Shown here piece by piece: positions 1-40,236 of a DNA stretch of 40,236 bases. The stretch is from a virus. A program made the translations under genes and the position numbers. Location: positions 1 through 40,236 of IMG/VR virus record IMGVR_UViG_3300037196_000123; one strand, given 5' to 3'. Position 1 is the stretch's first letter; each line of letters begins with the position of its first letter. The notes under the pieces were generated by a model. The model was not told the DNA's origin. It saw only the letters and a list, made by a program, of their open reading frames with translations, and did not search any database.

Positions 1-127
1 TACACCTGAGCGTAGGAGGCCTGGTCGAGACGGTCAACCATCATCGGGAGTTTGGACTCTAGAACTCCGTAGATGTTGGATACCTCAACAATCTTGGGAT
101 CTCCCTTGTCGTTCACACCAAAGCGAG
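1..127. repeat. terminal overlap, identical to 40110-40236 (circular contig closure or terminal redundancy)
   Basis: Direct comparison of the first and last 127 nt of the window gives the identical string tacacctgagcgtaggagg...cgttcacaccaaagcgag. Confidence 0.95.
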
Positions 128-5644: not shown

Positions 5645-5836
5645 TCAGAATGACAGCGTGTGACCTACATGACCCTCGGGGATCGCAAACAGGCCGTTCT
5701 TTGTTTGCCATCTCATACCACAGCTGCAGTCTACGTTGTACTCATCTTCGAGTTGAGGATCTATCATTTCCGGTCCTCCTGGGATAGTGAATGGTTCGCC
5801 AAGTTCCTCTTCCAGCACTTTCCTAAGATCGTTCAT
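5645..5836 (-). CDS. hypothetical protein
   Basis: 63-aa ORF with an ATGA overlap onto the primase stop (5836-5833). Confidence 0.5.
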   Translation of the reverse strand: MNDLRKVLEEELGEPFTIPGGPEMIDPQLEDEYNVDCSCGMRWQTKNGLFAIPEGHVGHTLSF

Positions 5837-6585
5837 ATTTGCTCCTCCAAACTTTCCAACATCTCTTTCATGATGCGTGCTGCTGTCGGACTACACAACA
5901 CATCAGAAGGATCATGAGCCGGACAGTACTGCCTATTCACATTGATGAGTCCCTCACACTTCCTTCTCACTTCGAAATAACCCTTTTCTCCTACACCATA
6001 AACCCCCCTCTTCGCTGTATCGTTGTCATACATGCAGTGAATCGTATTCACTCCCAGCATCTGAAGATAAGCAAGATGTCCTGCTCCGAAGTTGATGCTC
6101 AAAGTGCTAAGAACCGGAATGTTGGGATTAAGAAGTCGTGTTGCAATCAGGTCAAATGGTCCTTCTACCAAGAGCACCCAACCACACTCTATCACGTGCT
6201 CAATAACCCTTTTTGAGTTTCCGAACCACGTGGGTCCTACAAATTCGGACTTGTCTGTCAAACCCTTCAAGCAGTACCGATCTTCCTTCTTCGGTCCTCT
6301 TACCTGACATTTAACGGCCTTTCCTTTGAGATCGACTAACGGAAAGATGTAGTTAGGTCCCCAAGGTGTACTGTTCGGAGCATAGACGCAATGAAGATCA
6401 CCAAAGACTCGTTTCGCATTCTTCTCAATCAACGACCGGCTTGGTTCCCACCCACGGAACTTGATCATCATCTTCAAAGTGCTCTGCCACCACACCTTGT
6501 CAATGCTGGCGTAGTACGACTTCACCCCATTGAAGATGTCTCTACCATCCGTCCAATCAGCTGTATCTTGCTGTAATAAGCTCAT
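5833..6585 (-). CDS. DnaG-like primase (Toprim domain)
   Basis: Toprim motifs LLVEGPFDLIA (ExxxD... EGxxD type) and MYDNDTAKRG (DxD). I chose the ATG at 6585, which is preceded by AAGGAG. The track ORF extends to 6624. Confidence 0.7.
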   Translation of the reverse strand: MSLLQQDTADWTDGRDIFNGVKSYYASIDKVWWQSTLKMMIKFRGWEPSRSLIEKNAKRVFGDLHCVYAPNSTPWGPNYIFPLVDLKGKAVKCQVRGPKKEDRYCLKGLTDKSEFVGPTWFGNSKRVIEHVIECGWVLLVEGPFDLIATRLLNPNIPVLSTLSINFGAGHLAYLQMLGVNTIHCMYDNDTAKRGVYGVGEKGYFEVRRKCEGLINVNRQYCPAHDPSDVLCSPTAARIMKEMLESLEEQI

Positions 6586-7726
6586 GGAACTCCTTCTCAG
6601 TGATTGCCTGACCTTTGTTCTCAAACACTACACACGCGCAAGTTGGAAAAGTGGGATAATGACGACCATGACCATCTAGCCAGTCTTCACCTTTGGTGGT
6701 TCCTCTACCACGACAGATTTTACAATCAGGGTTGATGGTTTTGGTGGGCATTGGAGGACGAACCTTCACTCCGGATTCGATGTACTGACGAACCATCTCA
6801 GGAATGTATTTTGACAGAGTAGCACGATCAGCAATCTTCTTCTTCACCCAGAACTCGTCCTTGGTCATGGTCAGGTGATATATACACGCTTCATGAACCA
6901 AGCTCCCCGGAATATCTCCGAGTTCTTCTTCAAAGGTTAGAGGATCGAACTTCAACGGAGCGGAAGTCTTCGACGAAACCGGAGCGGAAACAACCCTGTT
7001 CGGATCGTACGGAGGAATGAACGGATTACCTCCACGACGTCTAACCGGAGAAGTAGAAACGGAAAGAGGGGATGCAAGGGTCTCCCTTGTCTCGGAAGAA
7101 ATCGAAGCGACGCTCTCTTCTCTTCTCTTCTCTTCTCTTTCTTCTTTATTCCGGACGCGATCGCTCGCATTACATTCCGATGGGTTTACATCCAATGATA
7201 GCGACTGACAGGGTAACTGACGAGCGACTGACGAGCGACTGATAGGTGGACTGACGAGCGACTGACGTGGTAACTGACTAGCGACTGACGGGGTGACTGA
7301 TAAGCGACTGATCTTTGCTTCATGCTTACGGTCATTTGATGCCGCAAAATGTGCCGGCTGCTTACCCATCAGGAACGTCTGATGATCAATTTCTTCATCC
7401 GGAATGCGGTCTTCGGAATCGATATCCTCCGTTGGGGATAGGTGAATCAACCCGAGTTGATACATCTTTTCTATTGCCCGTCCCACATACTTCCGGAAGT
7501 CAGGATCCAAGTTCATCTTGTTGGTCAGGAATCCTATATCGAGTCTGGGTTTCTTCCCACTTCTTCCTGCTTGACGTCTGAGGAAATCGTAGTAGTACCT
7601 CTGTTCTGGATGTAATTGAGTGTACTCAAAGTCGTCCTCTTTTTCAGTCCAATCGAAGACGTAATCTCTACGACCTTTGAGATCCTTCTGGTACTTCTTC
7701 CAGTTCTTGATTCCGATGTAAATCAT
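6557..7726 (-). CDS. replication initiator-like protein carrying the origin iterons inside its coding sequence
   Basis: 389-aa ORF between the helicase and primase genes. N-terminal winged-helix-like region. The central low-complexity segment is encoded by the iteron array and the polypurine tract. C-terminal Cys cluster CKICRGRG...CAC. Confidence 0.55.
   Translation of the reverse strand: MIYIGIKNWKKYQKDLKGRRDYVFDWTEKEDDFEYTQLHPEQRYYYDFLRRQAGRSGKKPRLDIGFLTNKMNLDPDFRKYVGRAIEKMYQLGLIHLSPTEDIDSEDRIPDEEIDHQTFLMGKQPAHFAASNDRKHEAKISRLSVTPSVASQLPRQSLVSPPISRSSVARQLPCQSLSLDVNPSECNASDRVRNKEEREEKRREESVASISSETRETLASPLSVSTSPVRRRGGNPFIPPYDPNRVVSAPVSSKTSAPLKFDPLTFEEELGDIPGSLVHEACIYHLTMTKDEFWVKKKIADRATLSKYIPEMVRQYIESGVKVRPPMPTKTINPDCKICRGRGTTKGEDWLDGHGRHYPTFPTCACVVFENKGQAITEKEFHELITARYS
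7113..7147. repeat. 35-nt homopyrimidine (plus strand) tract with (TCTTC)n repeats next to the iterons
   Basis: The sequence ctctcttctcttctcttctcttctctttcttcttt contains no purine. Confidence 0.85.
7201..7311. repeat. origin-like iteron array: 6 copies of GCGACTGA within about 23-bp units; 10 ACTGA cores at 11-12 bp spacing
   Basis: GCGACTGA at 7201, 7224, 7235, 7258, 7281 and 7304. Units read gcgactgacagggtaactgacga, gcgactgataggtggactgacga, gcgactgacgtggtaactgacta and gcgactgacggggtgactgataa. Confidence 0.8.
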
Positions 7727-9219
7727 AGATCCTCCCCAGGTGCCAACTTCATGGTCTTATCTCTTCCGCCACTCTTTTTCTTTGGAGGATCTTCCTTCTT
7801 TCCGTAGAGAACTGGAACGTCGTCGTCATGGTCATGAATGTACTCAGTACCAGGATCCATCGACAAATTGTGATCGACAAACTTACCAGTCCCGCGACTT
7901 TTACTGGAATGAACCTTCATTTCATATCCCGACTTCAGATCGTCGTCAGAATACACCGACATAGCAAGATCGGTATCCTGCTGAATTTCTGATCCGTAGA
8001 ATATCGAGTTAAGATCGTAGGTTCCGTCATTCTTCAGAGCATTCTTGTTAGACTCACGGTTGACTTGAGCAGGAGAAATCAGCAAAAATTTGTTGGTTTT
8101 CTTACACCAAGCGATTGCTCTCGCAACCATCGCTCCGGTTGCTGACTTCTGATCTTTGGATTCAGGAACTGTTAGGTGAGACAGATAGTCAACCACCACA
8201 ACTGTGTACTGATTCTTCTCGACATTAGCTTCGTAGTAGTCCTGAATCTCATTAAGAGACCAGATTGCTTGAACATCAACCGTTCCTCTTACGAGAGTGC
8301 GGCTCTTGATATCGTCAATGACTTCACAAATGTGGTTGTATTCTCTATCACTGAACTCGCCACTCTGCACACGGAGCTTACTGGGTAAGTCATAATCCTC
8401 GTTGCGGAAAACGTAGGAGTGAACGAGAGCCAGACTTTCCCAAGTCTCCTTGATGGTGGCTTCCAAAGTGATATAGAGGATGTTTTCTCCATTGCGAGCC
8501 ATGTTGTAGACGACAGAGTTCAGGAAAGTAGATTTGCCATCACCAGATGTACCAAGGATGAATAGAGCCTTTCCTTTCTTGCACTTCATCTTGGCATCAA
8601 TGAACTTGAATCCTAGGCGGATGATTTCTCCGTCGTTTATACGATGGTCCTGAATACTCTGCTTAACGATTTCTGTGTTTTCATGAAGCATTCCAGCGAA
8701 TTCCTCGGAAGGAAGCTCGATGGAAGAGATACGAGATTCTTGTTCACGAACCCAGGAAGGAACTTCATCAGGAGACAGCACCCTTTTGGTTCTGGGAATC
8801 TGCGTCTTACCCTTAGAGGATCCGGTAGCAGAATGGGCCATTCGGTAGGTGAATAGGCGTGCTGACCTCTTAGCCTCAGCAATTGTTTCCGAAGCAAGAA
8901 CATCAAAGTCGAGGTTCTTTTCGAAGGAGGGTATTTCCGTACGAAGCTCAATGATTTCGTCTTCAACAGTGGAGGCCACGATGGGAATTCCCTTGGCGAA
9001 CTGAACCACTGCATCAGTGCTTGGTGGACATCTTCTGAACTTTTCATCATAATCCAGAACACATCCCAAGGTTATCCAGTAGGGTAGATCAGATTCATCC
9101 TTGCTGGGACAAGTCACTGCCAAAGCGTAGGCATCGTTGAGACGACCGCGATACTTCGTGATTTCGGTGTGTCTGTCAGGATCAGAAGTGAGAAGATGTA
9201 TCAATTCCTTGATAGCCAC
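7723..9219 (-). CDS. DnaB-family replicative helicase
   Basis: Walker A GTSGDGKST, H1a-like ITLEA, Walker B VVVVDYLSHL, H3-like SPAQVNRES and H4-like GSEIQQDTDLAMSVY. Confidence 0.8.
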   Translation of the reverse strand: MAIKELIHLLTSDPDRHTEITKYRGRLNDAYALAVTCPSKDESDLPYWITLGCVLDYDEKFRRCPPSTDAVVQFAKGIPIVASTVEDEIIELRTEIPSFEKNLDFDVLASETIAEAKRSARLFTYRMAHSATGSSKGKTQIPRTKRVLSPDEVPSWVREQESRISSIELPSEEFAGMLHENTEIVKQSIQDHRINDGEIIRLGFKFIDAKMKCKKGKALFILGTSGDGKSTFLNSVVYNMARNGENILYITLEATIKETWESLALVHSYVFRNEDYDLPSKLRVQSGEFSDREYNHICEVIDDIKSRTLVRGTVDVQAIWSLNEIQDYYEANVEKNQYTVVVVDYLSHLTVPESKDQKSATGAMVARAIAWCKKTNKFLLISPAQVNRESNKNALKNDGTYDLNSIFYGSEIQQDTDLAMSVYSDDDLKSGYEMKVHSSKSRGTGKFVDHNLSMDPGTEYIHDHDDDVPVLYGKKEDPPKKKSGGRDKTMKLAPGEDL

Positions 9220-9927: not shown

Positions 9928-10071
9928 TTTTGTCTCCTACACCCTGTGTTCGGTAGTCCGGAAACAGTTTTTCATTATGTTTCGCCTTTTGTTCGCCTAC
10001 TTAATAATTTCCTGTTTTCCATTAAACCAGCGTATCATCATTTCAGATCGTTAGTTAGATGCTTTCCGACT

Positions 10072-10100
10072 TTGCCATCCAAGGTGTAGAACACATTAAT
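10072..10100 (+). promoter_or_regulatory. sigma70-like promoter candidate for the rightward early cluster (TTGCCA-17-ATTAAT)
   Basis: The hexamers were read directly. They lie about 57 nt upstream of the ATG at 10157. The host is unknown, so this is tentative. Confidence 0.25.
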
Positions 10101-10156
10101 CGTTCTGCGCGGGCTGCGTTCGGCGAAGAGGCCACCGCATCAAAACAGGAGCAAAC

Positions 10157-10321
10157 ATGACAGAAACCGAGATCGACCTTCGCAACGGTGCTGAGCGTCT
10201 GGCCAAGAAGCAAGAGGTCCTGATCAAGATGGTGAAACGGATGGACGAATTCATCGCCGACACAATGGAACGGATCGCCCGTTTAGAGACCACGAACGAG
10301 GCCACGAATGCGCATAGTTGA
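10157..10321 (+). CDS. 54-aa coiled-coil protein
   Basis: My translation is MTETEIDLRNGAERLAKKQEVLIKMVKRMDEFIADTMERIARLETTNEATNAHS. AGGAG lies 5 nt upstream. It replaces the antisense ORF 10096..10341. Confidence 0.5.
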   Translation: MTETEIDLRNGAERLAKKQEVLIKMVKRMDEFIADTMERIARLETTNEATNAHS

Positions 10322-10793
10322 CATGCTCCGCTCCAAACCACGGATGCTCAGAGTTCCGGAAGTCGCGGAGCTCCTGGGCACCCCCGAAAATTCCTTCCAT
10401 GAAGTGCTAGGTTCAAAGAACCATCCTCCGTTCTATAAGATCTACGGATCGAAGAACAGACAAGGGATTCGGATAGATGCTGAGGACCTCGCGATCTACT
10501 TAGAAAGCGTCCTCATCGCGGCGGATGTACCGGAAGCGAAAGTAGACCTCGCGCCTCAGCCTATCCAGCAGCCGGATGTACCACCGGTCATTGAAGAATC
10601 GTCTGACGTCGATCTGAGCGTCGTGGTGGAGCCTCCGGTGCCTGTTTCCGCTGAACTCGAAGAGGAAGAAGTCGAAGATGACGATCCTGATGCAAAGTAT
10701 GCTGAGATGTCGATCATTGAACTCCGTGCTCTCACCAACGATCAGCTGGCGCTGGATGAGATCTTCCGTCGCAAACAGTTATTGAAGAGGTAG
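10308..10793 (+). CDS. excisionase/MerR-type HTH DNA-binding protein with an acidic linker
   Basis: The segment LRVPEVAELLGTPENSFHEVL...IRIDAEDLAIYLES is HTH_17-like. An alternative start is the ATG at 10323, just after the upstream stop. Confidence 0.6.
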   Translation: MRIVDMLRSKPRMLRVPEVAELLGTPENSFHEVLGSKNHPPFYKIYGSKNRQGIRIDAEDLAIYLESVLIAADVPEAKVDLAPQPIQQPDVPPVIEESSDVDLSVVVEPPVPVSAELEEEEVEDDDPDAKYAEMSIIELRALTNDQLALDEIFRRKQLLKR

Positions 10794-10797
10794 CGAG

Positions 10798-10878
10798 ATG
10801 AAAGTTCTAATGTGCGGCATGGCAATCGTGAGTATCGTGCTCTGGATCACTTTTACGCGGCTCAGGTATTGGGAATGA
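10798..10878 (+). CDS. 26-aa hydrophobic micro-protein (tentative)
   Basis: MKVLMCGMAIVSIVLWITFTRLRYWE, with GAGG 7 nt upstream. Confidence 0.3.
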   Translation: MKVLMCGMAIVSIVLWITFTRLRYWE

Positions 10879-10927
10879 TCGCACAGGGCACTTGTTCTGT
10901 AATCGTTGAACCTTTGTAGGAGACGAG

Positions 10928-11068
10928 ATGTACGACGTTTATGAAGAAAACCGTTTCCTCCGCAAACGGGTGTTCCAACTCCAGCTTCAACTGGGGATGA
11001 GGAGGAAGATCATGTTTGCTGCCCTGTTGGTGTCCCTCATATGGTTGTACCTGAGATGCAGACATTAA
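10928..11068 (+). CDS. 46-aa protein with a C-terminal transmembrane segment (tentative)
   Basis: MYDVYEENRFLRKRVFQLQLQLGMRRKIMFAALLVSLIWLYLRCRH, with AGGAG upstream. Confidence 0.4.
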   Translation: MYDVYEENRFLRKRVFQLQLQLGMRRKIMFAALLVSLIWLYLRCRH

Positions 11069-11100
11069 CCGTTTTGATTCCCATTTCGGTAGAGTATTCC

Positions 11101-11448
11101 ATGGTCTGGGTCAATGTCAAATCGAGCGCCATCAAGCAGATCGCATTCCGCAGCGGCCTGATATACATCCGCTGGATTGCTGACAAGCACCTGTTCTATC
11201 GTTATGGCCGGTTCACTCGCCAGCAGTATGACGACTTCCGGCACTCCAAGAGCCTGGGTGCGTTCTACCACTTATACATCGTGGGAACGGACTGGACCAA
11301 GGTTCGTCAGATGCAGGAGCAGCTTGCCCAGTTAGTCTTGGAACTGGATCCTGACTATGGCAAGATGTTGACAGCATTTACATCAGTGAACCCTATGGCT
11401 CTGAGGGACTGGATCGGTGAACCGGAATTGGAACTAGCTCTTCGGTGA
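11101..11448 (+). CDS. KTSC domain protein
   Basis: The segment SSAIKQIAFRSGLIYIRW...FYRYGRFTRQQYDDFRHSKSLGAFYHLYI matches the KTSC pattern (S..I..I.Y...L.V.F..G..Y.Y..V....Y......S.G.Y....I). I chose the Met at 11101. The track ORF starts at 11041. Confidence 0.65.
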   Translation: MVWVNVKSSAIKQIAFRSGLIYIRWIADKHLFYRYGRFTRQQYDDFRHSKSLGAFYHLYIVGTDWTKVRQMQEQLAQLVLELDPDYGKMLTAFTSVNPMALRDWIGEPELELALR

Positions 11449-18714: not shown

Positions 18715-18858
18715 CTTGGTTCTCCTGTCGAGTTCATGATAACTTGTTACAATTACCCGTTTTGCTTGCTTCACCCGTAGAGTAAAGAGTGAGGTGTGAA
18801 ATGTGGTTCATCGTAGGACTCTTCGTAGCATGGTGCATCAAATACTGCTGGGAATAGC

Positions 18859-21264
18859 TTACTCCTTCTCAGGATCAGTCACAATCTTCTTGACACCTGG
18901 AGGTATCTCATCCGGATGTGCCAGATACCTCGCAGCTAGGCCTCTAGTATTCCGATGTCTCTCAGTTTCGTTAAAGAGATCCTGGAGAGGTGGCGGAACG
19001 TCTTTATACTTTGCTAGGTATTTGGCGACGGTGTCCTGAAAACTGTGATTGTTCTCAATTGAAGTTTCTTGATCTTCCGATGGCAGCTGTGGTTTGACTC
19101 TTGGTTCATCGGGTATATATGAACCAGGATCGGGATTGTCAATTCCGTGTTTATCAAGCAATCTGGAAACAATAGGATTGATTTCACCATATGTTCTAGA
19201 TTTTCCACCACTTGGTGCCACAATATCCCTGAGATCTGATTTGTGTGCTTCTTCAGCATTGAACAAAGGAGTATCAGGAATAGAGGGCACTCCCTCTATG
19301 TTGGTCGGTGGCGCAACATAAGATCCTCCTCTGCTTGTCGAGAACCCAGGCTTGTTTGTCCGTTCTTTATCCGCCCATGGCGTGTCGAAAGAAGTATCGT
19401 TGGGGACACCAAGGGGACCGTCATTCTTCTTACCCCGGCCAAAGGGTCCCCATCCCCCGCTTTCATCCATAACCCCAGAAGGCATATCGGGAAGTCTGAG
19501 CGAAGGAACCAAGTTGTGAAGAGATGGAAACTCCGAACCTAAGGCTTTACCTCCATAGTAAAGACCGGAAGCCAGACCAGATTTAACCGGAGTTGACTCT
19601 AATGCTATTCCTAGACCTGCTCCACTTAGGGCTTCCAAAGGACTATGTGACATAATTCCTGGAGTTAACCCTGCTCCCATTTCGAATGCTCTCCTAAGAC
19701 CTATACCCCAAGTTGGTCCAGTATTGGCTCTGCTTCGAGCAGCCTCAGCAAATGGAGTTAGGTTTTTGTACACAGAATTCAGTGGACGAAGAGAAGGAAT
19801 CTCATCAGCAATAGCTCCTCCTAATCCTCCTGTAATCTGTTGACCAACTTGTTTCAAACCAATTTGGGTGGGATCAGTCCATGAAATGTTACTGGCCACA
19901 TTATGCTTAATATCCTGCACATCTCTAGGATCGTATGGAAGTCCGAAATCTCTCCCCCCTTCTTCATGGCCCTGAAAATTGTCATTTAGAAAATCTTTGA
20001 GTCCTGTCATCCGTTCATCAAGAGCAGAAGATCCTGGACCATAAGGTCCATTTAGGACATCATGAGCCTTGTTGTATGGTCCTAGGATAGCATCAGCCAC
20101 TTTTCTGTAGGGAATAGGGCGATAATCCGACCCTGGTGGATTATCTGCGGGATCCCAATCTTCAGGAATCACTCCCTCAGGTGGCAACCAGGAAGCATTG
20201 TTAACTTTCTCCCCAATCTTTCTTCCAGCAACATCTCTCCCAGCTTCTGCCTTATCGGCTAGACCTGATTCAGTCGAGATAGCACGAAACGGACGCTGCC
20301 ACCATGGATAGTTTTGATCTATATGCTGAAAGTATCCAAGTGCTGGATTTTCTCCCATGGTATTGACATCAATCGGGTTACCTTTGGCATCCGTAGCTCC
20401 AAACTTTGCTGGTTTATCTCCAAAGGCTTTCTTACCGATACCAACTGCTCTATTAAGGGTTCCGACACCTCTATTCATCAGGAAATTAGAAGGACCTTCA
20501 CTGATCGCTTTTCCAAATGGAGTGTCGAATGCTGCATCAGTGGTTTCACCCATCAGCATGGGAGCCACACTAGCAGCGTTGCCCAAAACTGTGCCGAGGA
20601 CACCCGGATTCGTGAGGGTCTTGGCTACGGCATCTCTGAACCCATAAGAAGGAGATCTCTGGTCTACACCAGTCTGGATACCAGCACCAATAAACGGAAG
20701 AGCGTAAGCTGCATGTTCCCCAAACTTTGAGAAGTTGTTCTCATTCAGACCTCTACCAGCCTGAGCCAATTCAGATAGGCTTCTCTCTCCTCCATGCCAG
20801 AGACCTTCTCCAATCTGACCTGCAGGTCCAGCAAGATCACGGAGAACATCCTGGACCGGATGTTCCTGTAGATCTCGCACCTTCTCCAAACCTGCCCGAT
20901 CATGATGCCACAAATCTCCAAGACCAAGTGGCTTCGCGACAGACTCAAAAAATCCAGGTTTGTCATAATTGGGATTGTACTTGATCGCCTGAGCATGATC
21001 CTTGTTGTACTGAGATTCATATTCCGGCTTGTCGAAAGTAAGACCATTTTCCTGAGCAGTGTTGACCTGACCAAAAGGAACCCAGTTCAGAGTTCCCTGG
21101 TCATCTCTCATTCCATAGACGCCTTCCTTACCCGGATTAGGCAGGTGAATGTCTGCGTTCAGAGGAGTAGACGTCATGGTCTTCGGATCGAATTTAGGCA
21201 AGTCTTGATCCAATGGCGTAGACGTCATGGTCTTCGGATCGAATTTTGGGAGCTGATCAGCCAT
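18859..21264 (-). CDS. internal virion/ejection-like protein (801 aa)
   Basis: Large ORF in a series of three (214, 616 and 801 aa), as in podovirus core proteins. TAATG coupling to the upstream gene. The N-terminus carries a tandem duplication of LPKFDPKTMTSTPL. Confidence 0.5.
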   Translation of the reverse strand: MADQLPKFDPKTMTSTPLDQDLPKFDPKTMTSTPLNADIHLPNPGKEGVYGMRDDQGTLNWVPFGQVNTAQENGLTFDKPEYESQYNKDHAQAIKYNPNYDKPGFFESVAKPLGLGDLWHHDRAGLEKVRDLQEHPVQDVLRDLAGPAGQIGEGLWHGGERSLSELAQAGRGLNENNFSKFGEHAAYALPFIGAGIQTGVDQRSPSYGFRDAVAKTLTNPGVLGTVLGNAASVAPMLMGETTDAAFDTPFGKAISEGPSNFLMNRGVGTLNRAVGIGKKAFGDKPAKFGATDAKGNPIDVNTMGENPALGYFQHIDQNYPWWQRPFRAISTESGLADKAEAGRDVAGRKIGEKVNNASWLPPEGVIPEDWDPADNPPGSDYRPIPYRKVADAILGPYNKAHDVLNGPYGPGSSALDERMTGLKDFLNDNFQGHEEGGRDFGLPYDPRDVQDIKHNVASNISWTDPTQIGLKQVGQQITGGLGGAIADEIPSLRPLNSVYKNLTPFAEAARSRANTGPTWGIGLRRAFEMGAGLTPGIMSHSPLEALSGAGLGIALESTPVKSGLASGLYYGGKALGSEFPSLHNLVPSLRLPDMPSGVMDESGGWGPFGRGKKNDGPLGVPNDTSFDTPWADKERTNKPGFSTSRGGSYVAPPTNIEGVPSIPDTPLFNAEEAHKSDLRDIVAPSGGKSRTYGEINPIVSRLLDKHGIDNPDPGSYIPDEPRVKPQLPSEDQETSIENNHSFQDTVAKYLAKYKDVPPPLQDLFNETERHRNTRGLAARYLAHPDEIPPGVKKIVTDPEKE

Positions 21265-29849: not shown

Positions 29850-29888
29850 GCTACCCGATCTCCGAACTCAGTCCGTAGAAGAAATCAT

Positions 29889-29946
29889 GACGCGGCACGA
29901 CTAGACGTGACGCCACCCGACATGACTAGGCGCGACTCAACAAGAC
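29889..29946 (-). promoter_or_regulatory. array B: 12 phased GTCNN pentamers on the sense strand
   Basis: Reads GTCTT GTTGA GTCGC GCCTA GTCAT GTCGG GTGGC GTCAC GTCTA GTCGT GCCGC GTC from 29946 down to 29889. Confidence 0.9.
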
Positions 29947-29950
29947 AAGA

Positions 29951-29986
29951 AGGAGAGCCTGAAGGATCGCTCCGACAGGCTCTCCT
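29951..29986 (-). terminator. intrinsic-terminator-like hairpin after the 127-aa gene
   Basis: AGGAGAGCCUG - 14 nt - CAGGCUCUCCU (11 bp), followed by UCUUGUCUUGUUG. Confidence 0.55.
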
Positions 29987-29988
29987 AA

Positions 29989-30372
29989 TCAGTCCTTGAC
30001 CCAGATTGCCTCGAACTTGATGACGTCCGCCAACACACCAGCCGGCAACGCGCCATTGGGCAGTTCGGCGAAAGGACCATTGGCAGCCGAAGATTCAAGG
30101 ATCTGGATCTTTCCGGACGCAGCGTTCCACTGATAGACATAGCCACTTCCTGCAACAGAAGTGAACACGATGTCATCGGGCTGGACGTTGAGAGTCGGAA
30201 TCAGGACCGCTGCACCAGATGCATCCGAGTACGGAGGAACATTTGGTAGGACCCCGCCTGCAGCATAGGTTCCTGCTCCCCATGCCAACTTGCCCCGCAG
30301 CCACATCCGAGACATGGTCTGGTCGATGCCGTAGGGTGCATTAAAAACGGTTAAAACTGCACTGATAGCCAT
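29989..30372 (-). CDS. small beta-rich virion-associated protein (127 aa)
   Basis: The ATG at 30372 is preceded by GGAG. The track ORF starts further upstream at 30492. Confidence 0.5.
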   Translation of the reverse strand: MAISAVLTVFNAPYGIDQTMSRMWLRGKLAWGAGTYAAGGVLPNVPPYSDASGAAVLIPTLNVQPDDIVFTSVAGSGYVYQWNAASGKIQILESSAANGPFAELPNGALPAGVLADVIKFEAIWVKD

Positions 30373-30445
30373 TATGCTATCTCCTTCTGACGGACAATCT
30401 CGAGCCGTCTCTTTTGTGAATTGCGGATCTTGGTCACTGGTCTCA

Positions 30446-31306
30446 TCAGTAGAGAGTCCTTGAATTCTGGTTACCACCAGCACCCGATCCATAGATCGGC
30501 ATGGTGTATGAAATATGCTGGCGATCCCGCGTTATTTGCTTTCTCAACTTCAGTAGTGCCTTGGCTGCATCCATAACAGCCGTTTGGTACGCCGTGCCTC
30601 CCAAGCGACTTGCGTACATTTGGCTGATCTTGGTTGCAACGCATTCTTGACAATCCATGACCGGAACCATCGTCGTTGACCAATCAACTGTGCTTACGTT
30701 ATCCGGGTCCGCATCTGTGTTGGGAGACGGAAGCAAGTCTTGGTACACTATGAAGTATCTTAGCCTAACATCCATCGGCTGCGTTGCGCCGTTGCACCAC
30801 AGACCATCAGTCCTCCACTCCCACTTACCAAGTGAGTTCGAAGACTGCTGTGTGGGACAGAGAGCTCCGGTAGACTGCTTGACTTCTGAGAAACTCATGC
30901 TGGAATTTCCAGAAGGTCTCTGCCAGAGTGAGATTGGCTGCAAGAGAGTGGAAGGAAGTGGAAAGTTTGGCCACATCATCAATCCGTCGAAGTATCCTCC
31001 GAACTGGAAGGAAACTTGGGCAGCCGGATTGATCACTCCTACTCCTAGAGCAGAGTTTACCGGAGGAACTGAAAACAGAATGTAGTTGTCTCCGATCAAG
31101 GTTGGCTGGCCCATGATTCGGACATCACGCCACATATCTCTGATCGCTGAGTTGAGGAAGTTCTGGAGAGTAACGGATGTGTTAGTCAGGATCTGACCTT
31201 CACCTGGTGTGCCAGTGGCTCCCTTTTTGTCGTCGTTGCACATACTACGTGCCAGGTTCGCAATGACAGCGAGCGAAGGGTAGTTTTGGGAGGGTCCAAC
31301 TGCCAT
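30446..31306 (-). CDS. virion structural protein (286 aa), adaptor/connector-like by position
   Basis: GAGGTGA SD. Call rests on position downstream of the capsid block. Confidence 0.5.
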   Translation of the reverse strand: MAVGPSQNYPSLAVIANLARSMCNDDKKGATGTPGEGQILTNTSVTLQNFLNSAIRDMWRDVRIMGQPTLIGDNYILFSVPPVNSALGVGVINPAAQVSFQFGGYFDGLMMWPNFPLPSTLLQPISLWQRPSGNSSMSFSEVKQSTGALCPTQQSSNSLGKWEWRTDGLWCNGATQPMDVRLRYFIVYQDLLPSPNTDADPDNVSTVDWSTTMVPVMDCQECVATKISQMYASRLGGTAYQTAVMDAAKALLKLRKQITRDRQHISYTMPIYGSGAGGNQNSRTLY

Positions 31307-33230: not shown

Positions 33231-33733
33231 GGCTTCTCTACTGCAAAGTGACAAGATTCCACCAACTTAATGTCCCATACACTACAAAGGGTGAAAATCT
33301 CGTCACCAACCTTGATGTCTTCCGTGTTGAAAGCTCCGAAAACGACTAAATCTCCCACCTTAACCTGGTCACTCATAGGGAAACTCTTTCCTTCCCATAT
33401 GAATGTGGCCGCTGTAGCTACAACCACACCGCGATTTGGCGACTGCTGAGCAGACTCCGGTATGACAAATCGAGTGCCACCATAGACAGTCTCTTTTGCC
33501 ATTCGTCTAATCAAAACATGATTGAATATCGGCAACGGATCGTCGTACACTCTTTCAACCGTCTGAATTTTCCTACCGGAGTAAAGGCTCTCCAGTTCGT
33601 CCTTGGTGAACTCTGCCGGAGTGATGGCTTCAACAGCCTGATTTTCGGCCGCAGGATCTCCTGGAGCTTGCTGAGTTTCCTTGATTTTCCGACGGTCAAC
33701 AATTTCAAAGGGTCCGTTCTTACTGGTTGACAT
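33227..33733 (-). CDS. GroES/Cpn10-like co-chaperonin with a roughly 70-aa N-terminal extension
   Basis: The ATG at 33733 is preceded by AAGGAG. The C-terminal roughly 95 aa aligns by eye with GroES: FNHVLIRR..E....GG..IPESAQQSPNRGVVVA........VKVGDLVVF......I. Confidence 0.65.
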   Translation of the reverse strand: MSTSKNGPFEIVDRRKIKETQQAPGDPAAENQAVEAITPAEFTKDELESLYSGRKIQTVERVYDDPLPIFNHVLIRRMAKETVYGGTRFVIPESAQQSPNRGVVVATAATFIWEGKSFPMSDQVKVGDLVVFGAFNTEDIKVGDEIFTLCSVWDIKLVESCHFAVEKP

Positions 33734-33786
33734 TATGGTCTCCTTGATTACCCGTTCTGTGTTTCTGTTCGGTAGAAAGCTATCTC

Positions 33787-33844
33787 GACCAGACATGACT
33801 GCACCAGTCAGGACGTGGCAAGACGTGACTCGACTAGACCCGAC
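33787..33844 (-). promoter_or_regulatory. array A: 12 phased GTCNN pentamers on the sense strand
   Basis: Reads GTCGG GTCTA GTCGA GTCAC GTCTT GCCAC GTCCT GACTG GTGCA GTCAT GTCTG GTC from 33844 down to 33787. Confidence 0.9.
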
Positions 33845-33851
33845 AAGGGAA

Positions 33852-33878
33852 AAGGGTCAGGTGATAAGCCTGACCCTT
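33852..33878 (-). terminator. intrinsic terminator after the major capsid gene
   Basis: AAGGGUCAGG - CUUAUCA - CCUGACCCUU (10 bp), followed by UUCCCUUGU. It starts 8 nt after the capsid stop codon. Confidence 0.6.
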
Positions 33879-33885
33879 CTCACAG

Positions 33886-35229
33886 TTAGATGGTGGGCTG
33901 AGACGCACCGTACACGAAGAGCTGGTGCTTAGGTGCGCTGCAGGCGAGGTTGAACGCTGCCTCATAGGCGAACTGGAATGCAGTCAACCAATCGTTGCTG
34001 GTACCAGGAACAGGGATGGAAGTCACGCCATCTCCGTACTGGTACAGCTGGAGAGGAATGAGCTCTCCAAGGTACCACTCATTCGTCAGGAGGAGGTCCA
34101 AGCGACCAGAAGGCTGAGCGTAGGAGAGGTGAGATTCGCGGCCACCGAAGGTACCCTGGAAATACTTGCGAGAAGTATCCGGAGTCTTCTTGTTGCCACC
34201 ACCACCCTCGTCAGAATTCTGGGTGATCTGCTTGTTGTAGTAGTTCGTGGTGCCGATGGCGACCGCCTGGTCCTCAGGAATGATGTAGATACCCGAGTCC
34301 TTGCTCTTGTTGTCTCCGCCCATCGCACGACCAAGCAATGCCTCGACGCGCAGTGAGAGAGAAGCTGTAATCGATCCACCGTTCAGGTTGATCGAAGGAG
34401 CAGTCACGCGGTTCGGATAGTCAGCGCGGTTGACACCAGCGATGGTACCAGTCGTGGAAGAGCTATTCCAGGCAGTGGTTCCGAAGACGCCCTGGTTGAG
34501 TGCGCCTGTGGATCCGGCAATCATGATGTAGTCGCCAACTGCAGTTGCGCCACCCAAGGAGGGTAGGGCAGTGCTGAAGAACACCGTGCTCGAGGCCGGA
34601 TCGGTCACAGAAACAGTCGCATTGCCACGACTGGATCCGCCTTCCGAGGGGAAGATCTGAACGATCTGGTTGTCGGTCAGGGCCATTGCGCGGATGCCAG
34701 TGATGTAGCTGGTGGCGTTACCCGAACCAGAACCGCTGGAAACCGTCGCGCCGGTGGGAATCTGGGTGATTGCACCCGAGCTATCCCCGTACATGATGCC
34801 CTCGAGGCCAGCCATTGCGGAGTCAAGAGAGTTCTTGAGCTCTTCGGCCTTCAGAGAGATGAGACCTCTCTTCTTATTGCCGGTGGCCGCCTGAGCGATG
34901 CGGGTCTGTTGGTTCGTGGCGTAGTGATACACAGGAGACAGAACGAAGTCAGCCCACTGCGATGCGTTACCAGATCCAAGGGAGTCACCGTTGCCAGTTC
35001 CCTGACCAATCGCGGATCCACCCTGGACACGGAACGGTACACGGAAAGAAGGCCGCGTGGTTCCTGATACCGAAGTACCAGCAAGAGTTGTGTGAGAAAT
35101 AGGAATGCTCGTAAAGCGATCCTTCGCCAACGAGAACAGAGTCGAACTCTGTGGAATAAGAGAGGGAATGGAGGTCGCGAACGATTCAAGTTCAACGGCC
35201 TGTACAGCAGATTCTGCGCCGACTGCCAT
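33886..35229 (-). CDS. major capsid protein
   Basis: 447-aa ORF directly after the scaffold region and followed by a strong terminator. GGGAGA SD. Call rests on size and position. I cannot verify the fold. Confidence 0.7.
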   Translation of the reverse strand: MAVGAESAVQAVELESFATSIPSLIPQSSTLFSLAKDRFTSIPISHTTLAGTSVSGTTRPSFRVPFRVQGGSAIGQGTGNGDSLGSGNASQWADFVLSPVYHYATNQQTRIAQAATGNKKRGLISLKAEELKNSLDSAMAGLEGIMYGDSSGAITQIPTGATVSSGSGSGNATSYITGIRAMALTDNQIVQIFPSEGGSSRGNATVSVTDPASSTVFFSTALPSLGGATAVGDYIMIAGSTGALNQGVFGTTAWNSSSTTGTIAGVNRADYPNRVTAPSINLNGGSITASLSLRVEALLGRAMGGDNKSKDSGIYIIPEDQAVAIGTTNYYNKQITQNSDEGGGGNKKTPDTSRKYFQGTFGGRESHLSYAQPSGRLDLLLTNEWYLGELIPLQLYQYGDGVTSIPVPGTSNDWLTAFQFAYEAAFNLACSAPKHQLFVYGASQPTI

Positions 35230-37736: not shown

Positions 37737-38351
37737 CTAACTTCCGCCGAAGGCAGCCTCTTCAACATCACCGAACACAGGAACAACCTCGTGATGGTCC
37801 CCATCCCAGTAGATTTCAGCAATTCCACCGGGTTTCACTGAATCACCAAACTCTGGCTCGATGTTGTGAGCACCTTCAGTCAGGTTTACCAGCGCAGTGA
37901 CATTGCTGGTGTGAGCTACATATAGTGTAACTCCCACCTTCCTGGCCTGAACCAGTGCTGCTCCCCAGAAAGCAAATTGACGATCCTCGAAATCAGAGAG
38001 ACATTCACCTTCAGGGATGCAAACATCAGGACTGTGAACAAACAACCTTAAAGCCTCGTTATGCAAGGATTTGTCTAATCCTGTGAAGACTCCGAGTCTC
38101 CAAGGGAAGAGTCCTCTTGACTGATACACAAAGTTCTTTTGGCAGCAGATATCTGCCGTCACGAACGCTCTGAGTAAGGGTGAGGATATCACCTGCTTAA
38201 TCTGGTATCTCTTCAAAAACTCATTCGCAGCAGCAGCTTGTTTCTTACCCTTGGCATTCAGAGGAGGATCGCTCCACGAACGGAACTTGTTATCCGCATT
38301 GACTGCGGTTTCTCCGTGCCGGAGGACAATTCCAACAAGTTTCTTGGCCAT
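37737..38351 (-). CDS. histidine phosphatase superfamily (PGAM-like) protein
   Basis: RHG motif VLRHGETAVN, then SSPLLRAFVTA, GECLSDFEDR and YVAHTSNV. Together these supply the catalytic R-H-R-E-H set. TAATG coupling to the portal stop. Confidence 0.75.
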   Translation of the reverse strand: MAKKLVGIVLRHGETAVNADNKFRSWSDPPLNAKGKKQAAAANEFLKRYQIKQVISSPLLRAFVTADICCQKNFVYQSRGLFPWRLGVFTGLDKSLHNEALRLFVHSPDVCIPEGECLSDFEDRQFAFWGAALVQARKVGVTLYVAHTSNVTALVNLTEGAHNIEPEFGDSVKPGGIAEIYWDGDHHEVVPVFGDVEEAAFGGS

Positions 38352-40236
38352 TACAGCTTCCTAGTAGTTCTCGTCTTGATTTCAGCCATCGGATTTCTCC
38401 TGATGGTTTCTTGAGTTTGTTCACTCGGTTCAGGCTTGGGAGGAGATACCTGAATCCCAGCCATACCCAAGAGTTCCGAGATGGTATTCGGATCCAACTT
38501 GCCGCTGAGACTGACCTTCGGGGCAGCTGGAACAGGTTTGGCGAACTTTTCAGCAAGCTCCTTGTTTGCCTTCCAATAGAGCAAAATGTTTGTAAACTTG
38601 GCCCAATTCTGCTTCATCTTAGGATCGGGATTGTTGCCATCTTCTTTTGCCGCAGCTCTGCGAATCTTCCTGAATTCGGGTTTCTGCATGAAGCTGAACA
38701 AAGTAGCAGTGATGGTGGCATAGTCGACACTCTGGTCATCTGGAACTTCTACTGAAGGAAGATACTGAGGAGTCCCATCCAGCTGCTTCTTGACCTCACC
38801 AACTTTTTGCTCCAGTTGCTGACCTTGCTCGGTATCTTCCGGATGAAGTCTTCCCTCTTGAGCAGCCTGAGTTGCCAGCTGCTTGGCCTGTTCATGAACC
38901 TCGCTCATTTCCCGATACTGGCGGTTCAATTCGTGCCACTGTGGATTTTCAAGAGGCTCGGACTCTAGAAGGATTTCAACAGTCTCCATGGCTCCATCTT
39001 CCGAATCAGCTTCATCAACCGTGATGACGTCATCCATGTGCAGCCCATTGATGATCTCACGAGCATTGCTCGGAGTTCCCACGATGGACTGAATCTGTTG
39101 ACTCGAATTTGCCATTTCGAGGATCTGCAATATCTTGGCTTCACGTTGGGCACCCGACTCTGGGATTCCATTAATCGTCTCCGCCTTGCACTTGAAGTTA
39201 CCCTTGAGATTCTCAGGATTGACAGTGATATCACCATATTCCGAAGAGTTGCTGGAGATCTCCGTATTTCCGTTGTCTGCACAGCATCTGACGGCCTGTG
39301 AGCACGCTTCGGCAAACATCTTGTTGGATACTAGCCATGCAGTTCCGATGCGCTCCAAAGCCTGCTGAAGACGGATCTGTGTTGCACCAACCGTGTTGTC
39401 TGCTCCTTCACCGCCTCCAAACAACGCTGGTGTTCCTCCGTCAATGGACTGGATGAGTGGTCCTAGATACCACTGCAGCATTTCACTGAATCCCGGAATC
39501 GGTTGAGGAGTGGGAGTCTGTCCCACGATGGATTGCATCGTCTGCTGGTTCGCTGTATCGAGTGCTACTTCAACGAATCTTGTAGTGCTGGCTTCTAGCT
39601 TCGACATTGCCTCAGCATCGAATGCTTCCGACTCCAGCAGTCCGATCGGAATAGATCCTCTGACATACTTGTCCCAAAGATCCGCCCAGATGTTGATCCT
39701 CTTCTGAATCGGGATATCAGACGATCCAAGAGCGCGGCGATCCTGTCCAAATCCTCTAGAGTACATTCCCATAGACAAGTGGTCGTCCATTGATTCCGTC
39801 CAGCAACAGACGAATTCAGGTCCAGCCATGACAATGAAGATGCCCTTTGAGAACTCTTTGAGGAAGAACTCACGCTGACTTGCCTTCACCTTATCGTCGT
39901 AGAAGATACCAACACGATACCAGGTGTAACCCATAGTGCATTCACGGACACCTGCTGTACCTGTAATGTAACGACCCATCATACCAAGGCGAGTGTTGAT
40001 ACGAGCAATACGCTCAAACTCCAGTTCACCCGCTGTGCCCCACGACGGCTTGATCTTGTTACCCATCCACGGATATGCTGCACGTGCGATGGCATAGTCA
40101 ACTTCTTCGTACACCTGAGCGTAGGAGGCCTGGTCGAGACGGTCAACCATCATCGGGAGTTTGGACTCTAGAACTCCGTAGATGTTGGATACCTCAACAA
40201 TCTTGGGATCTCCCTTGTCGTTCACACCAAAGCGAG
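38351..40236 (-). CDS. portal protein, C-terminal part (continues from 755..1 through the junction)
   Basis: The 624-aa track ORF begins at a GTG that is an internal Val codon of the longer frame. See the feature at 1..755. Confidence 0.7.
   Translation of the reverse strand, partial: RFGVNDKGDPKIVEVSNIYGVLESKLPMMVDRLDQASYAQVYEEVDYAIARAAYPWMGNKIKPSWGTAGELEFERIARINTRLGMMGRYITGTAGVRECTMGYTWYRVGIFYDDKVKASQREFFLKEFSKGIFIVMAGPEFVCCWTESMDDHLSMGMYSRGFGQDRRALGSSDIPIQKRINIWADLWDKYVRGSIPIGLLESEAFDAEAMSKLEASTTRFVEVALDTANQQTMQSIVGQTPTPQPIPGFSEMLQWYLGPLIQSIDGGTPALFGGGEGADNTVGATQIRLQQALERIGTAWLVSNKMFAEACSQAVRCCADNGNTEISSNSSEYGDITVNPENLKGNFKCKAETINGIPESGAQREAKILQILEMANSSQQIQSIVGTPSNAREIINGLHMDDVITVDEADSEDGAMETVEILLESEPLENPQWHELNRQYREMSEVHEQAKQLATQAAQEGRLHPEDTEQGQQLEQKVGEVKKQLDGTPQYLPSVEVPDDQSVDYATITATLFSFMQKPEFRKIRRAAAKEDGNNPDPKMKQNWAKFTNILLYWKANKELAEKFAKPVPAAPKVSLSGKLDPNTISELLGMAGIQVSPPKPEPSEQTQETIRRNPMAEIKTRTTRKL
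40110..40236. repeat. terminal overlap, identical to 1-127
   Basis: Direct comparison. Confidence 0.95.

Follow-up and report, generated by a model that had tools for sequence, protein, structure and literature searches.

The VIPR systems of phages are the closest described counterparts of elements A and B, two intergenic repeat elements in a viral genome (IMG/VR record IMGVR_UViG_3300037196_000123) whose full 40,236 nucleotides (nt) were analysed and are referred to here as the window. According to two preprints, Vipr is a phage-encoded minimal RAMP protein of ~20 kDa, and a VIPR locus consists of the vipr gene (RRM core, G-loop, and thumb) beside vrRNAs, usually with a vap gene (doi 10.64898/2026.04.26.720920, 10.64898/2026.04.26.720927). 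These vrRNAs are described as phage-borne repeat RNAs of ~100 nt that contain 9-16 tandem pentamers, each formed by a conserved GGY triplet and a hypervariable dinucleotide (NN), with frequent internal degeneracy and a 3' structured cap or tail (10.64898/2026.04.26.720920). Vipr is reported to form a helical filament on the single-stranded RNA with one protomer per pentamer, in which the triplets are hidden and the NN dinucleotides are displayed (10.64898/2026.04.26.720920, 10.64898/2026.04.26.720927). The dinucleotides read double-stranded DNA with a one-nucleotide skip, resulting in transcriptional silencing, and the natural targets are competing phages, satellites, and prophages (10.64898/2026.04.26.720920, 10.64898/2026.04.26.720927). 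The available text names as consensuses only GGY (YNNGG) and the "related" NNNGG, YNNNG, and NNNNG (10.64898/2026.04.26.720920), and VIPR is proposed to predate CRISPR (10.64898/2026.04.26.720920, 10.64898/2026.04.26.720927). Elements A and B are probably two solo ("orphan") VIPR-type repeat-RNA (vrRNA-like) genes in a non-GGY dialect, which would use or titrate a Vipr protein supplied in trans.

Each element is an intergenic module of ~140 nt (A, 33747-33881; B, 29850-29986) that contains 12 strictly phased pentamers (Table 1). On the minus strand, element A (33844..33787) reads GTCGG GTCTA GTCGA GTCAC GTCTT GCCAC GTCCT GACTG GTGCA GTCAT GTCTG GTC, with exact GTC in 9/12 triplets and the other three (GCC, GAC, and GTG) each one base off. 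Element B (29946..29889) reads GTCTT GTTGA GTCGC GCCTA GTCAT GTCGG GTGGC GTCAC GTCTA GTCGT GCCGC GTC, with exact GTC in 8/12 triplets and the degenerate units GTT, GCC, GTG, and GCC. Over both arrays, 17/24 triplets are exact and each of the 24 units begins with G, and GAT forms the 13th phased triplet of A as well as of B. The first-pass annotation, which was made from the sequence alone, had described the phased tract of A in these terms and had pointed to a second copy with the same architecture; both descriptions were reproduced, the second copy including the hairpin and the box, whereas the spacer of 8 nt that it gave between hairpin and array measures 9 nt from the GC core of the hairpin. 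The NN dinucleotides of A and B agree at only 5/24 positions, which is the chance level, even though both elements conserve the triplets and the bipartite box on their flank.

Such arrays are not expected by chance. Elsewhere in the window, a 12-unit phased scan of both strands never rose above 3-4/12, and a relaxed 6-unit pattern produced 13 matches, every one within A or B, against 0.01 expected from 100 dinucleotide-preserving shuffles; the earlier caveat that comparable arrays might be as frequent in shuffled sequence does not apply. Taken alone, arrays A and B fold no more strongly than shuffled sequence (z = +0.9 and +0.6), which fits with a single-stranded tract. Both elements are 100% identical in contigs of six independent samples, and the arrays are therefore not an assembly artefact. 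Samples that contain this phage are JGI 3300050010 and 3300036909 as well as SRR11570526, SRR11575706, SRR30280154, and SRR23247783. Exact-protein look-ups returned solely 100%-identical copies of the same phage, with no allelic array variants to compare. Rfam covariance models gave 0 matches over the whole window at gathering thresholds, and a tRNA search of the window found nothing.

The same type of array was found in other viruses. When viral contigs were scanned for five GTCNN units in a row, the matches comprised simple repeats as well as ~90 arrays with variable spacers (8-34 units, often several per contig). The Vipr of Escherichia phage SUSP1, from the reference locus recovered from KT454805, was used as a query and detected open reading frames (ORFs) immediately adjoining GTCNN arrays. 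A hidden Markov model (HMM) of the family then identified a Vipr homologue in 21 fetched loci (E = 1e-50 to 1e-70), in most cases immediately beside the arrays. A Vipr homologue was present in 17/17 array loci with sufficient flank, and in the 6 loci without one the array is situated within ~2 kb of the end of the locus. A tblastn comparison revealed no relevant proteins common to the window and the array-bearing loci.

Two dialects can be distinguished among the vipr-linked arrays. In ~12-14 loci, GAC+NN is read on the vipr strand, with arrays that often start 4-5 nt past the vipr stop and end in AAGAC AAGAC; the plus-strand end of element B (...AAGAC AAGAA) resembles this 3' end. In 4-5 loci (L031, L110, L096, L082, and L131 in part), GUC+NN is read on the vipr strand, and a one-directional terminator follows the GUC arrays of L031. 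On the vipr strand, the degenerate units of both dialects retain a nearly invariant G at position 1 and show a wobble from C to U at position 3 (ATC (= GAU) and GCC (= GGC) in the GAC class, GTT (= GUU) in the GUC class), and such strand-asymmetric substitutions are as expected for an RNA that is read by a protein. Furthermore, an alignment of the 21 array-linked homologues with SUSP1 Vipr indicated that the residues contacting base 2 in the SUSP1 structure co-vary with the triplet: R138 and W178 accompany GGY, F138 with Met, Trp, or Phe at 178 occurs in the core GAC clade, and R138 with Gly, Gln, or Asp at 178 occurs in the GUC class. By these sequence features, the GTC/GAC arrays in vipr-linked loci appear to be genuine vrRNA-type repeats.

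These loci vary in layout. Non-GGY VIPR loci (GAC or GUC) are L118, L106, L040/L099, L073, L059, L027, L110, L096, L031, and L082. Examples of Vipr ORFs in the GAC class are L106:126-686 and L073:9680-10285, both on the minus strand. L118 carries 13 or more arrays in 6 kb, and L106 harbors a single 34-unit array (L106:712-879) that is well beyond the published 9-16 units. Super-repeats with conserved linkers occur in L040 (35 nt) and in L073/L059 (~24 nt, with a GCGG-N4-CCGC hairpin), and staggered arrays in L110 and L096 are separated by GGCA or a 1-nt phase slip. The Vipr of L131 keeps W178, and its locus carries GGYNN units. Variable-spacer GTCNN arrays without Vipr in the fetched sequence are L114:1345-1412, L125:6072-6174, L045:501-847, L037, L094, and L128; in L114, the array follows a 97-aa non-Vipr gene, and next to it on the GTC strand come ATTCCTAC and then a strong terminator.

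The anatomy of A and B, together with the GTC/GAC arrays adjoining Vipr homologues elsewhere, leads us to read the two tracts as the repeat region of a vrRNA. Even so, A and B do not qualify as a VIPR system, since searches for the vipr gene that defines one found none. Each element would encode an RNA of ~100 nt in which 12 pentamers are capped by a hairpin, and both RNAs would be expressed. Vipr would polymerise along the tract with one protomer per pentamer and display the NN dinucleotides. Since no vipr is detectable in the phage, the RNAs could act only with the Vipr of another element, possibly one encoded by a prophage already present in the cell, by a co-infecting phage, or on an island of the host. 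The satellites targeted by SUSP1, which carry vrRNAs of their own, are a partial precedent for use in trans (10.64898/2026.04.26.720920). The RNAs of A and B might then serve in either of two roles, re-targeting a foreign Vipr as hijacked guides, or acting as decoys that would each tie up 12 Vipr protomers.

A narrower version, which we consider rather unlikely though worth stating, is that A and B are RNA anti-VIPRs, i.e., highly expressed solo RNAs that nucleate Vipr filaments on a harmless guide. Such RNAs would disarm a prophage- or host-borne VIPR in the way that RNA anti-CRISPRs disarm Cas proteins, and drift of their NN dinucleotides would be limited solely by the need not to match the genome of the phage itself.

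Three points follow from these findings. Repeats of the vrRNA type appear to exist with triplets other than GGY, and the GAC and GUC dialects are widespread beside vipr genes; the co-variation of the base-2 residues with dialect provides a handle on how Vipr reads its scaffold. If A and B are orphan vrRNA-like genes, a complete phage can carry the RNA half only, which implies use in trans or sabotage of a foreign Vipr and hence an extra layer of conflict between viruses. The modules have entered as units of ~140 nt between genes of the structural operon, and in relatives one of the two sites has also been invaded by homing endonucleases. Should binding and a decoy or hijack function prove true, A and B would represent the first anti-VIPR or trans-VIPR element.

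A number of observations weigh against the orphan vrRNA reading. The triplets of A and B are GUC or GAC and not GGY, and in SUSP1 a change from GGY to GAY abolishes silencing (10.64898/2026.04.26.720920, 10.64898/2026.04.26.720927). With filters off, the Vipr HMM yielded a best E of ~1 on the window's ORFs and stop-to-stop six-frame translations, and HHalign of the 21-member Vipr family alignment reached no more than 1.7% probability for any of the 81 ORFs with 90 aa or more. When most of the long ORFs and all the small ORFs singled out by the first-pass annotation were scanned against Pfam, no RRM, RAMP, Hfq, or TRAP-like domain was detected. The first and last 127 nt of the window are identical (1..127 and 40110..40236); this exact direct terminal repeat indicates a complete, circularly closed genome with a unique length of ~40.1 kb, and a vipr gene therefore cannot lie beyond the end of the window. 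No conserved tail common to A or B and any examined vipr-linked array was found. The U-tracts of the hairpins are better on the minus than on the plus strand, a matter of terminator direction that favors the minus strand. The arrays are 29% degenerate compared with 13-14% in vipr-linked arrays, a difference of ~2-fold, and their substitutions GTG (twice) and GAC are rare in both dialect classes; this degeneracy could indicate decay.

The target searches also weigh against it. Under the 1-nt-skip rule and the published threshold of at least 80% NN match, 2.7 Mb of DNA was searched for targets, self-targets included, with the xNN-coded target sequence of array A being CAnATnTGnCAnAGnGTnAAnGTnTCnTAnCC; the result holds for both strands, as reverse complementation leaves the NN register intact. 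Nothing exceeded the permuted-guide controls (best 19/24), and exact 22-base guide patterns gave 0 matches in viral and genome collections. The best 1-nt-skip match to the NN code of A (19/24) is located at 33272..33307 on the minus strand, inside the GroES-like gene and ~500 nt downstream of the array. This match was treated as chance, since it is below the 80% threshold and within the range of the permuted controls.

Part of this evidence would be equally expected if A and B were non-functional, decaying remnants of VIPR arrays that were acquired by recombination from a vipr-carrying phage. The lack of a detected vipr and of a target, the higher degeneracy, and the atypical substitutions are all consistent with such a relic, as is the distribution of the arrays among relatives. 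Phased arrays occurred in 0/31 relatives (13 viral and 18 metagenome contigs, whose versions of the 447-aa protein are 41-76% identical in amino-acid sequence; up to 6 kb was covered on each side, less where contigs are shorter), and the check for conservation in related phages that had been proposed earlier was thus negative. On the other hand, two separate copies keep exactly 12 units in perfect 5-nt phase without an indel, the position-1 G is retained throughout, and the box and the hairpin have been kept while the NN dinucleotides diverged to chance, which is a signature of selection on the scaffold. The identity of the sequence in six samples likewise speaks against decay, and a relic is on balance an unlikely explanation.

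The relatives also show what the two junctions look like in the absence of the arrays. At site A, the hairpin is followed directly by the ribosome-binding site (RBS) of the GroES-like gene, or a homing-endonuclease-like gene is inserted. At site B, the two genes lie only 10-19 nt apart or are separated by an additional inserted ORF, and the junction has no hairpin; given this short junction, the whole ~140-nt module of hairpin, array, and box in the window is an insertion. The genes flanking each array, among them the 167-aa ORF (29989..30492), are conserved in the array-less relatives. The homing-endonuclease-like genes at site A (NUMOD3 motif; Endonuclease VII) are L002:7419-8030, L005:7399-8073, L009:7428-8090, and L011:7418-7909, and the extra ORFs at site B occur in L005, L009, L010, and L011. 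Judging from these comparisons, both sites are hotspots for mobile insertions, and the arrays appear to be insertions rather than core regulatory sites.

This bears on the function that the first-pass annotation had favored, namely a cis-acting RNA site, bound by a TRAP-like oligomer on the late read-through transcript, that would control translation, stability, or termination for the GroES-like and 1688-aa genes. The tract is located on the sense strand between a terminator-like hairpin and the next RBS, it is unstructured, and its 5-nt period with a 3-nt core equals the geometry of Bacillus subtilis TRAP. Nevertheless, all 31 relatives have the same genes in the same order without the tract, the NN dinucleotides are unconstrained between A and B, and identical array types elsewhere belong to VIPR loci. 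No candidate binder emerged either, as the small ORFs proposed as partners have no match to an RNA-binding family and the 167-aa ORF is kept in relatives without arrays. Cis control by a TRAP-like protein is thus very unlikely; TRAP itself is an analogy only, with a different triplet and no TRAP-like protein in the Pfam scans. What does survive of the earlier proposal is its geometry, since a ring or helical oligomer of ~12 subunits that takes one triplet per 5 nt on single-stranded RNA matches, by analogy, the filament mechanism of VIPR. The statement that no such system had been described has been superseded by the vrRNAs with GGY/NN pentamers described in 2026 and by the GTC/GAC arrays beside vipr homologues.

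An element acting as DNA, either duplex or single-stranded, is highly improbable, whether as an array of the operator or partition type for a small DNA-binding protein or as a group of sites recognised by a primase. Tandem short-repeat operators are known, for example the omega heptads and the ParG tetramer boxes, the genome contains a primase-like gene and a helicase gene (Table 1), and the orientation of the arrays relative to neighbouring genes varies between phages. No rationale can be given for strict 5-nt phasing by a primase, and no array-associated DNA-binding gene was found in the window; the strand-asymmetric substitutions of vipr-linked arrays and the co-variation of Vipr pocket residues with the triplet also argue against DNA. 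Just as little credence is given to a complete cis-encoded system in which the window itself encodes a cryptic, very divergent RAMP or another filament-forming RNA-binding protein. About half of the ORFs lack a family assignment, and RAMP proteins are described as notoriously divergent (10.64898/2026.04.26.720920), but the Vipr family is coherent enough for the single SUSP1 sequence to find array-linked homologues, the 21-member profile and HHalign yielded nothing in the window, and the genes adjoining the arrays are conserved in array-less relatives. Coding repeats were set aside because the reading frame is incompatible with a 5-nt period, a Rho utilisation site because the tract is too G-rich, and a packaging (pac) site because there are two copies here and many per genome elsewhere.

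If A and B are vrRNA-like genes, the strand of the RNA determines their layout. In both elements, the order on the minus strand is hairpin, array, TTCTAC(C)GRAC, CGGGTA exactly 17 nt past TTCTAC, and the start of the next gene. The hairpin of element A follows the stop codon (33886..33888) of the 447-aa gene and precedes UUUUCCCUU on that strand, and it is 3' of the array on the plus strand. On the plus strand, the repeats are followed by a strong hairpin of different sequence in A and in B. On the minus strand, they are followed by a conserved box, which lacks a consistent stem and recurs elsewhere without arrays. The flank pattern TACCCG-N17-GTAGAA-...-ATCNNGAC had one chance match only in viral contigs.

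The box itself speaks for the plus strand. Its five copies share two conserved hexamers that are always exactly 17 nt apart, with no conservation in between, and on the plus strand the downstream hexamer is A/T-rich; hexamers with a fixed, unconserved spacer look like a promoter or protein-binding site, not like an RNA stem. When up to two mismatches were allowed, the box was matched five times in plus orientation and once in minus orientation, and two plus-orientation copies are located upstream of the only plus-strand genes, for which ~0.05 were expected by chance. In both elements, the predicted start (TAGAAA in A and TAGAAG in B, plus 7 nt) coincides with the first GAC unit. The third copy lacks an array, so that box and array are separable, and its extended run AACGGGTAAT is identical to that of element A; the copy at 11066..11094 has extended similarity on the minus strand (CTCTACCGAA...AACGGTTAAT). 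The box may be the phage's plus-strand, perhaps early, promoter, and we infer that it also serves as the promoter of the A and B units. Use as a minus-strand promoter was rejected, as in B only 5 nt lie between the end of the box and the ATG (29849) of the 1688-aa gene, and an RNA stem formed by TTCTAC and CGGGTA was not supported on inspection of the five copies.

The remaining observations on the strand are divided. The degenerate units of A and B give a mixed picture, in which G1 in 24/24 favors GUC and a GCC-rich, GTT-poor spectrum with a GTCTT start favors GAC. The invariant minus-strand G at position 1, as in GUC-class RNAs, is a point for the minus strand, and L082 shows on its vipr strand the same hairpin-array-TTCTTCTAC-RBS-ATG order as the window, although the 9-mer TTCTTCTAC is not recurrent among arrays. 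The sequence UUCUUCUAC, found in L082 and element B, was rejected as a shared vrRNA tail, since 6 of its 7 matches are due to chance and TCTAC is not enriched. The minus-strand (GUC) RNA of the first-pass annotation is supported by the better U-tracts and the invariant G, while the internal evidence leans slightly to plus, and we marginally prefer an RNA on the plus strand (GAC). In that layout, the box ATTACCCG-N17-GTAGAR would direct a transcript from the first GAC through (GAC NN)x12 and the hairpin, ~98-100 nt in total, and the units would be self-contained and antisense to the structural operon. In the alternative layout, a GUC-reading tract would be part of the sense-strand late mRNA.

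Table 1. Location of the repeat elements, the box copies, and two genes in the window.
Feature	Position	Strand	Description	Basis
Element A repeat tract	33785..33844	.	12 phased pentamers; minus GTC+NN, plus GAC+NN	Sequence, phased scan
Element B repeat tract	29887..29946	.	12 phased pentamers; minus GTC+NN	Sequence, phased scan
Element A hairpin	33849..33881	.	13-bp stem, GC core GGGTCAGG/CCTGACCC, 7-nt loop	Sequence and RNA folds of both strands
Element B hairpin	29951..29986	.	GGAGAGCCUG...CAGGCUCUCC, 11+3 bp	Sequence, RNA folds, relatives
Element A bipartite box	33747..33777	+	Plus ATTACCCG-N17-GTAGAA, promoter-like; minus TTCTAC-N17-CGGGTAAT	Sequence, five-copy alignment
Element B bipartite box	29852..29880	+	TACCCG-N17-GTAGAA	Sequence
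Box copy 3	18754..18782	+	One mismatch, without array; intergenic between 801-aa and 262-aa genes	Box alignment
Weaker box copy	10063..10091	+	2 mismatches; 66 nt upstream of first plus-strand gene (ATG 10157)	
Weaker box copy	11066..11094	+	2 mismatches; 6 nt upstream of ATG 11101, plus-strand KTSC-domain gene	
Primase-like gene	5833..6624			
DnaB-like helicase gene	7723..9219			

Two further regions contain the box. At 18754..18925 on the plus strand, box copy 3 is followed by GAGG, an 18-codon hydrophobic ORF (MWFIVGLFVAWCIKYCWE, ~18797..18853), and a 9-bp hairpin (GAGGTATCT...AGATACCTC); the region may thus form another small transcription unit in antisense, a third one with the build of A and B. 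Plus-strand genes cluster solely at 10063..11448, where two weaker box copies occur; this cluster encodes a 54-aa ORF, a 161-aa HTH_17-like protein, small peptides, and the 115-aa KTSC-domain protein, for which translation from a leaderless mRNA is possible.

The minus strand carries nearly all other genes. The gene products identified are TerS, an intein-containing TerL, a DnaB-like helicase, a Toprim-like primase, and a GroES-like protein. No near-identical DNA was found among GenBank phages, which marks the phage as divergent. The GroES-like label given earlier to the gene downstream of A was confirmed (Pfam Cpn10, E = 1.4e-11), whereas the "capsid" label of the 447-aa gene upstream of A could not be substantiated, as its product had no PHROG, Pfam, or PDB sequence match. 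The large terminase subunit (1742..4282, minus strand) has an N-terminal ATPase domain (PHROG 2, Terminase_3) and owes its length of 846 aa to an intein, with aa 507-784 as the best stretch for Pfam Intein_splicing (E = 1.2e-11) and Hint_2 at aa 479-516. A protein of the histidine phosphatase family (37737..38351, minus strand; Pfam His_Phos_1, E = 2.4e-26) is encoded within the head-morphogenesis module, where it is unusual, and is conserved in relatives.

Among known systems, the omega protein heptads of pSM19035 and the ParG tetramer boxes are tandem short-repeat DNA operators, and the recognition site of the T7 gp4 primase is 5'-GTC-3'. Elements A and B resemble them in being arrays of very short direct repeats and in the GTC trinucleotide; to our knowledge, a 5-bp period is unprecedented for the omega, ParG, or T7 primase systems, and the strand-asymmetric substitutions and RAMP linkage of this array type point to RNA. 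The TRAP (MtrB) sites in the Bacillus trp leader, trpG, and trpP RNAs consist of 9-11 GAG/UAG triplets with 2-3 nt spacers, and TRAP is a closed 11/12-mer ring that acts in cis on attenuation or translation. Triplets with unconstrained spacers of 2-3 nt on single-stranded RNA and one subunit per triplet would be common to both; A and B differ in their GUC/GAC triplets, in the absence of a TRAP-like family match among the ORFs scanned, and in being dispensable in relatives, and the 8-34 units of the wider array family fit a filament rather than a ring.

RNA anti-CRISPRs (Racrs), reportedly described by Camara-Wilpert et al. in Nature in 2023, are said to be solitary repeat units that mimic CRISPR repeats and bind Cas6/Cas7-type proteins. 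By analogy, A and B would resemble Racrs and phage-borne CRISPR mini-arrays in providing the RNA part only and in relying on or subverting the effectors of another genome, but they would bind Vipr rather than Cas6/Cas7-type proteins, and a decoy role is hypothetical here. From VIPR systems themselves, A and B differ, apart from the triplet, in that their genome has no detectable vipr or vap gene, that they occur as single modules that have been inserted between genes of the structural operon at two sites and not beside vipr, and that they have no tail in common with the examined vipr-linked arrays and no target found. In contrast, the vrRNAs typified by Escherichia phage SUSP1 and elements A and B share phased pentamers, a conserved triplet, hypervariable NN dinucleotides, and a number of units (12) within the range of 9-16. 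Internal degenerate units and a phage-borne location are also shared, as would be a structured cap and a total length of ~100 nt, and about 20 unrelated contigs from viruses have GTC/GAC arrays like those of A and B next to a vipr homologue.

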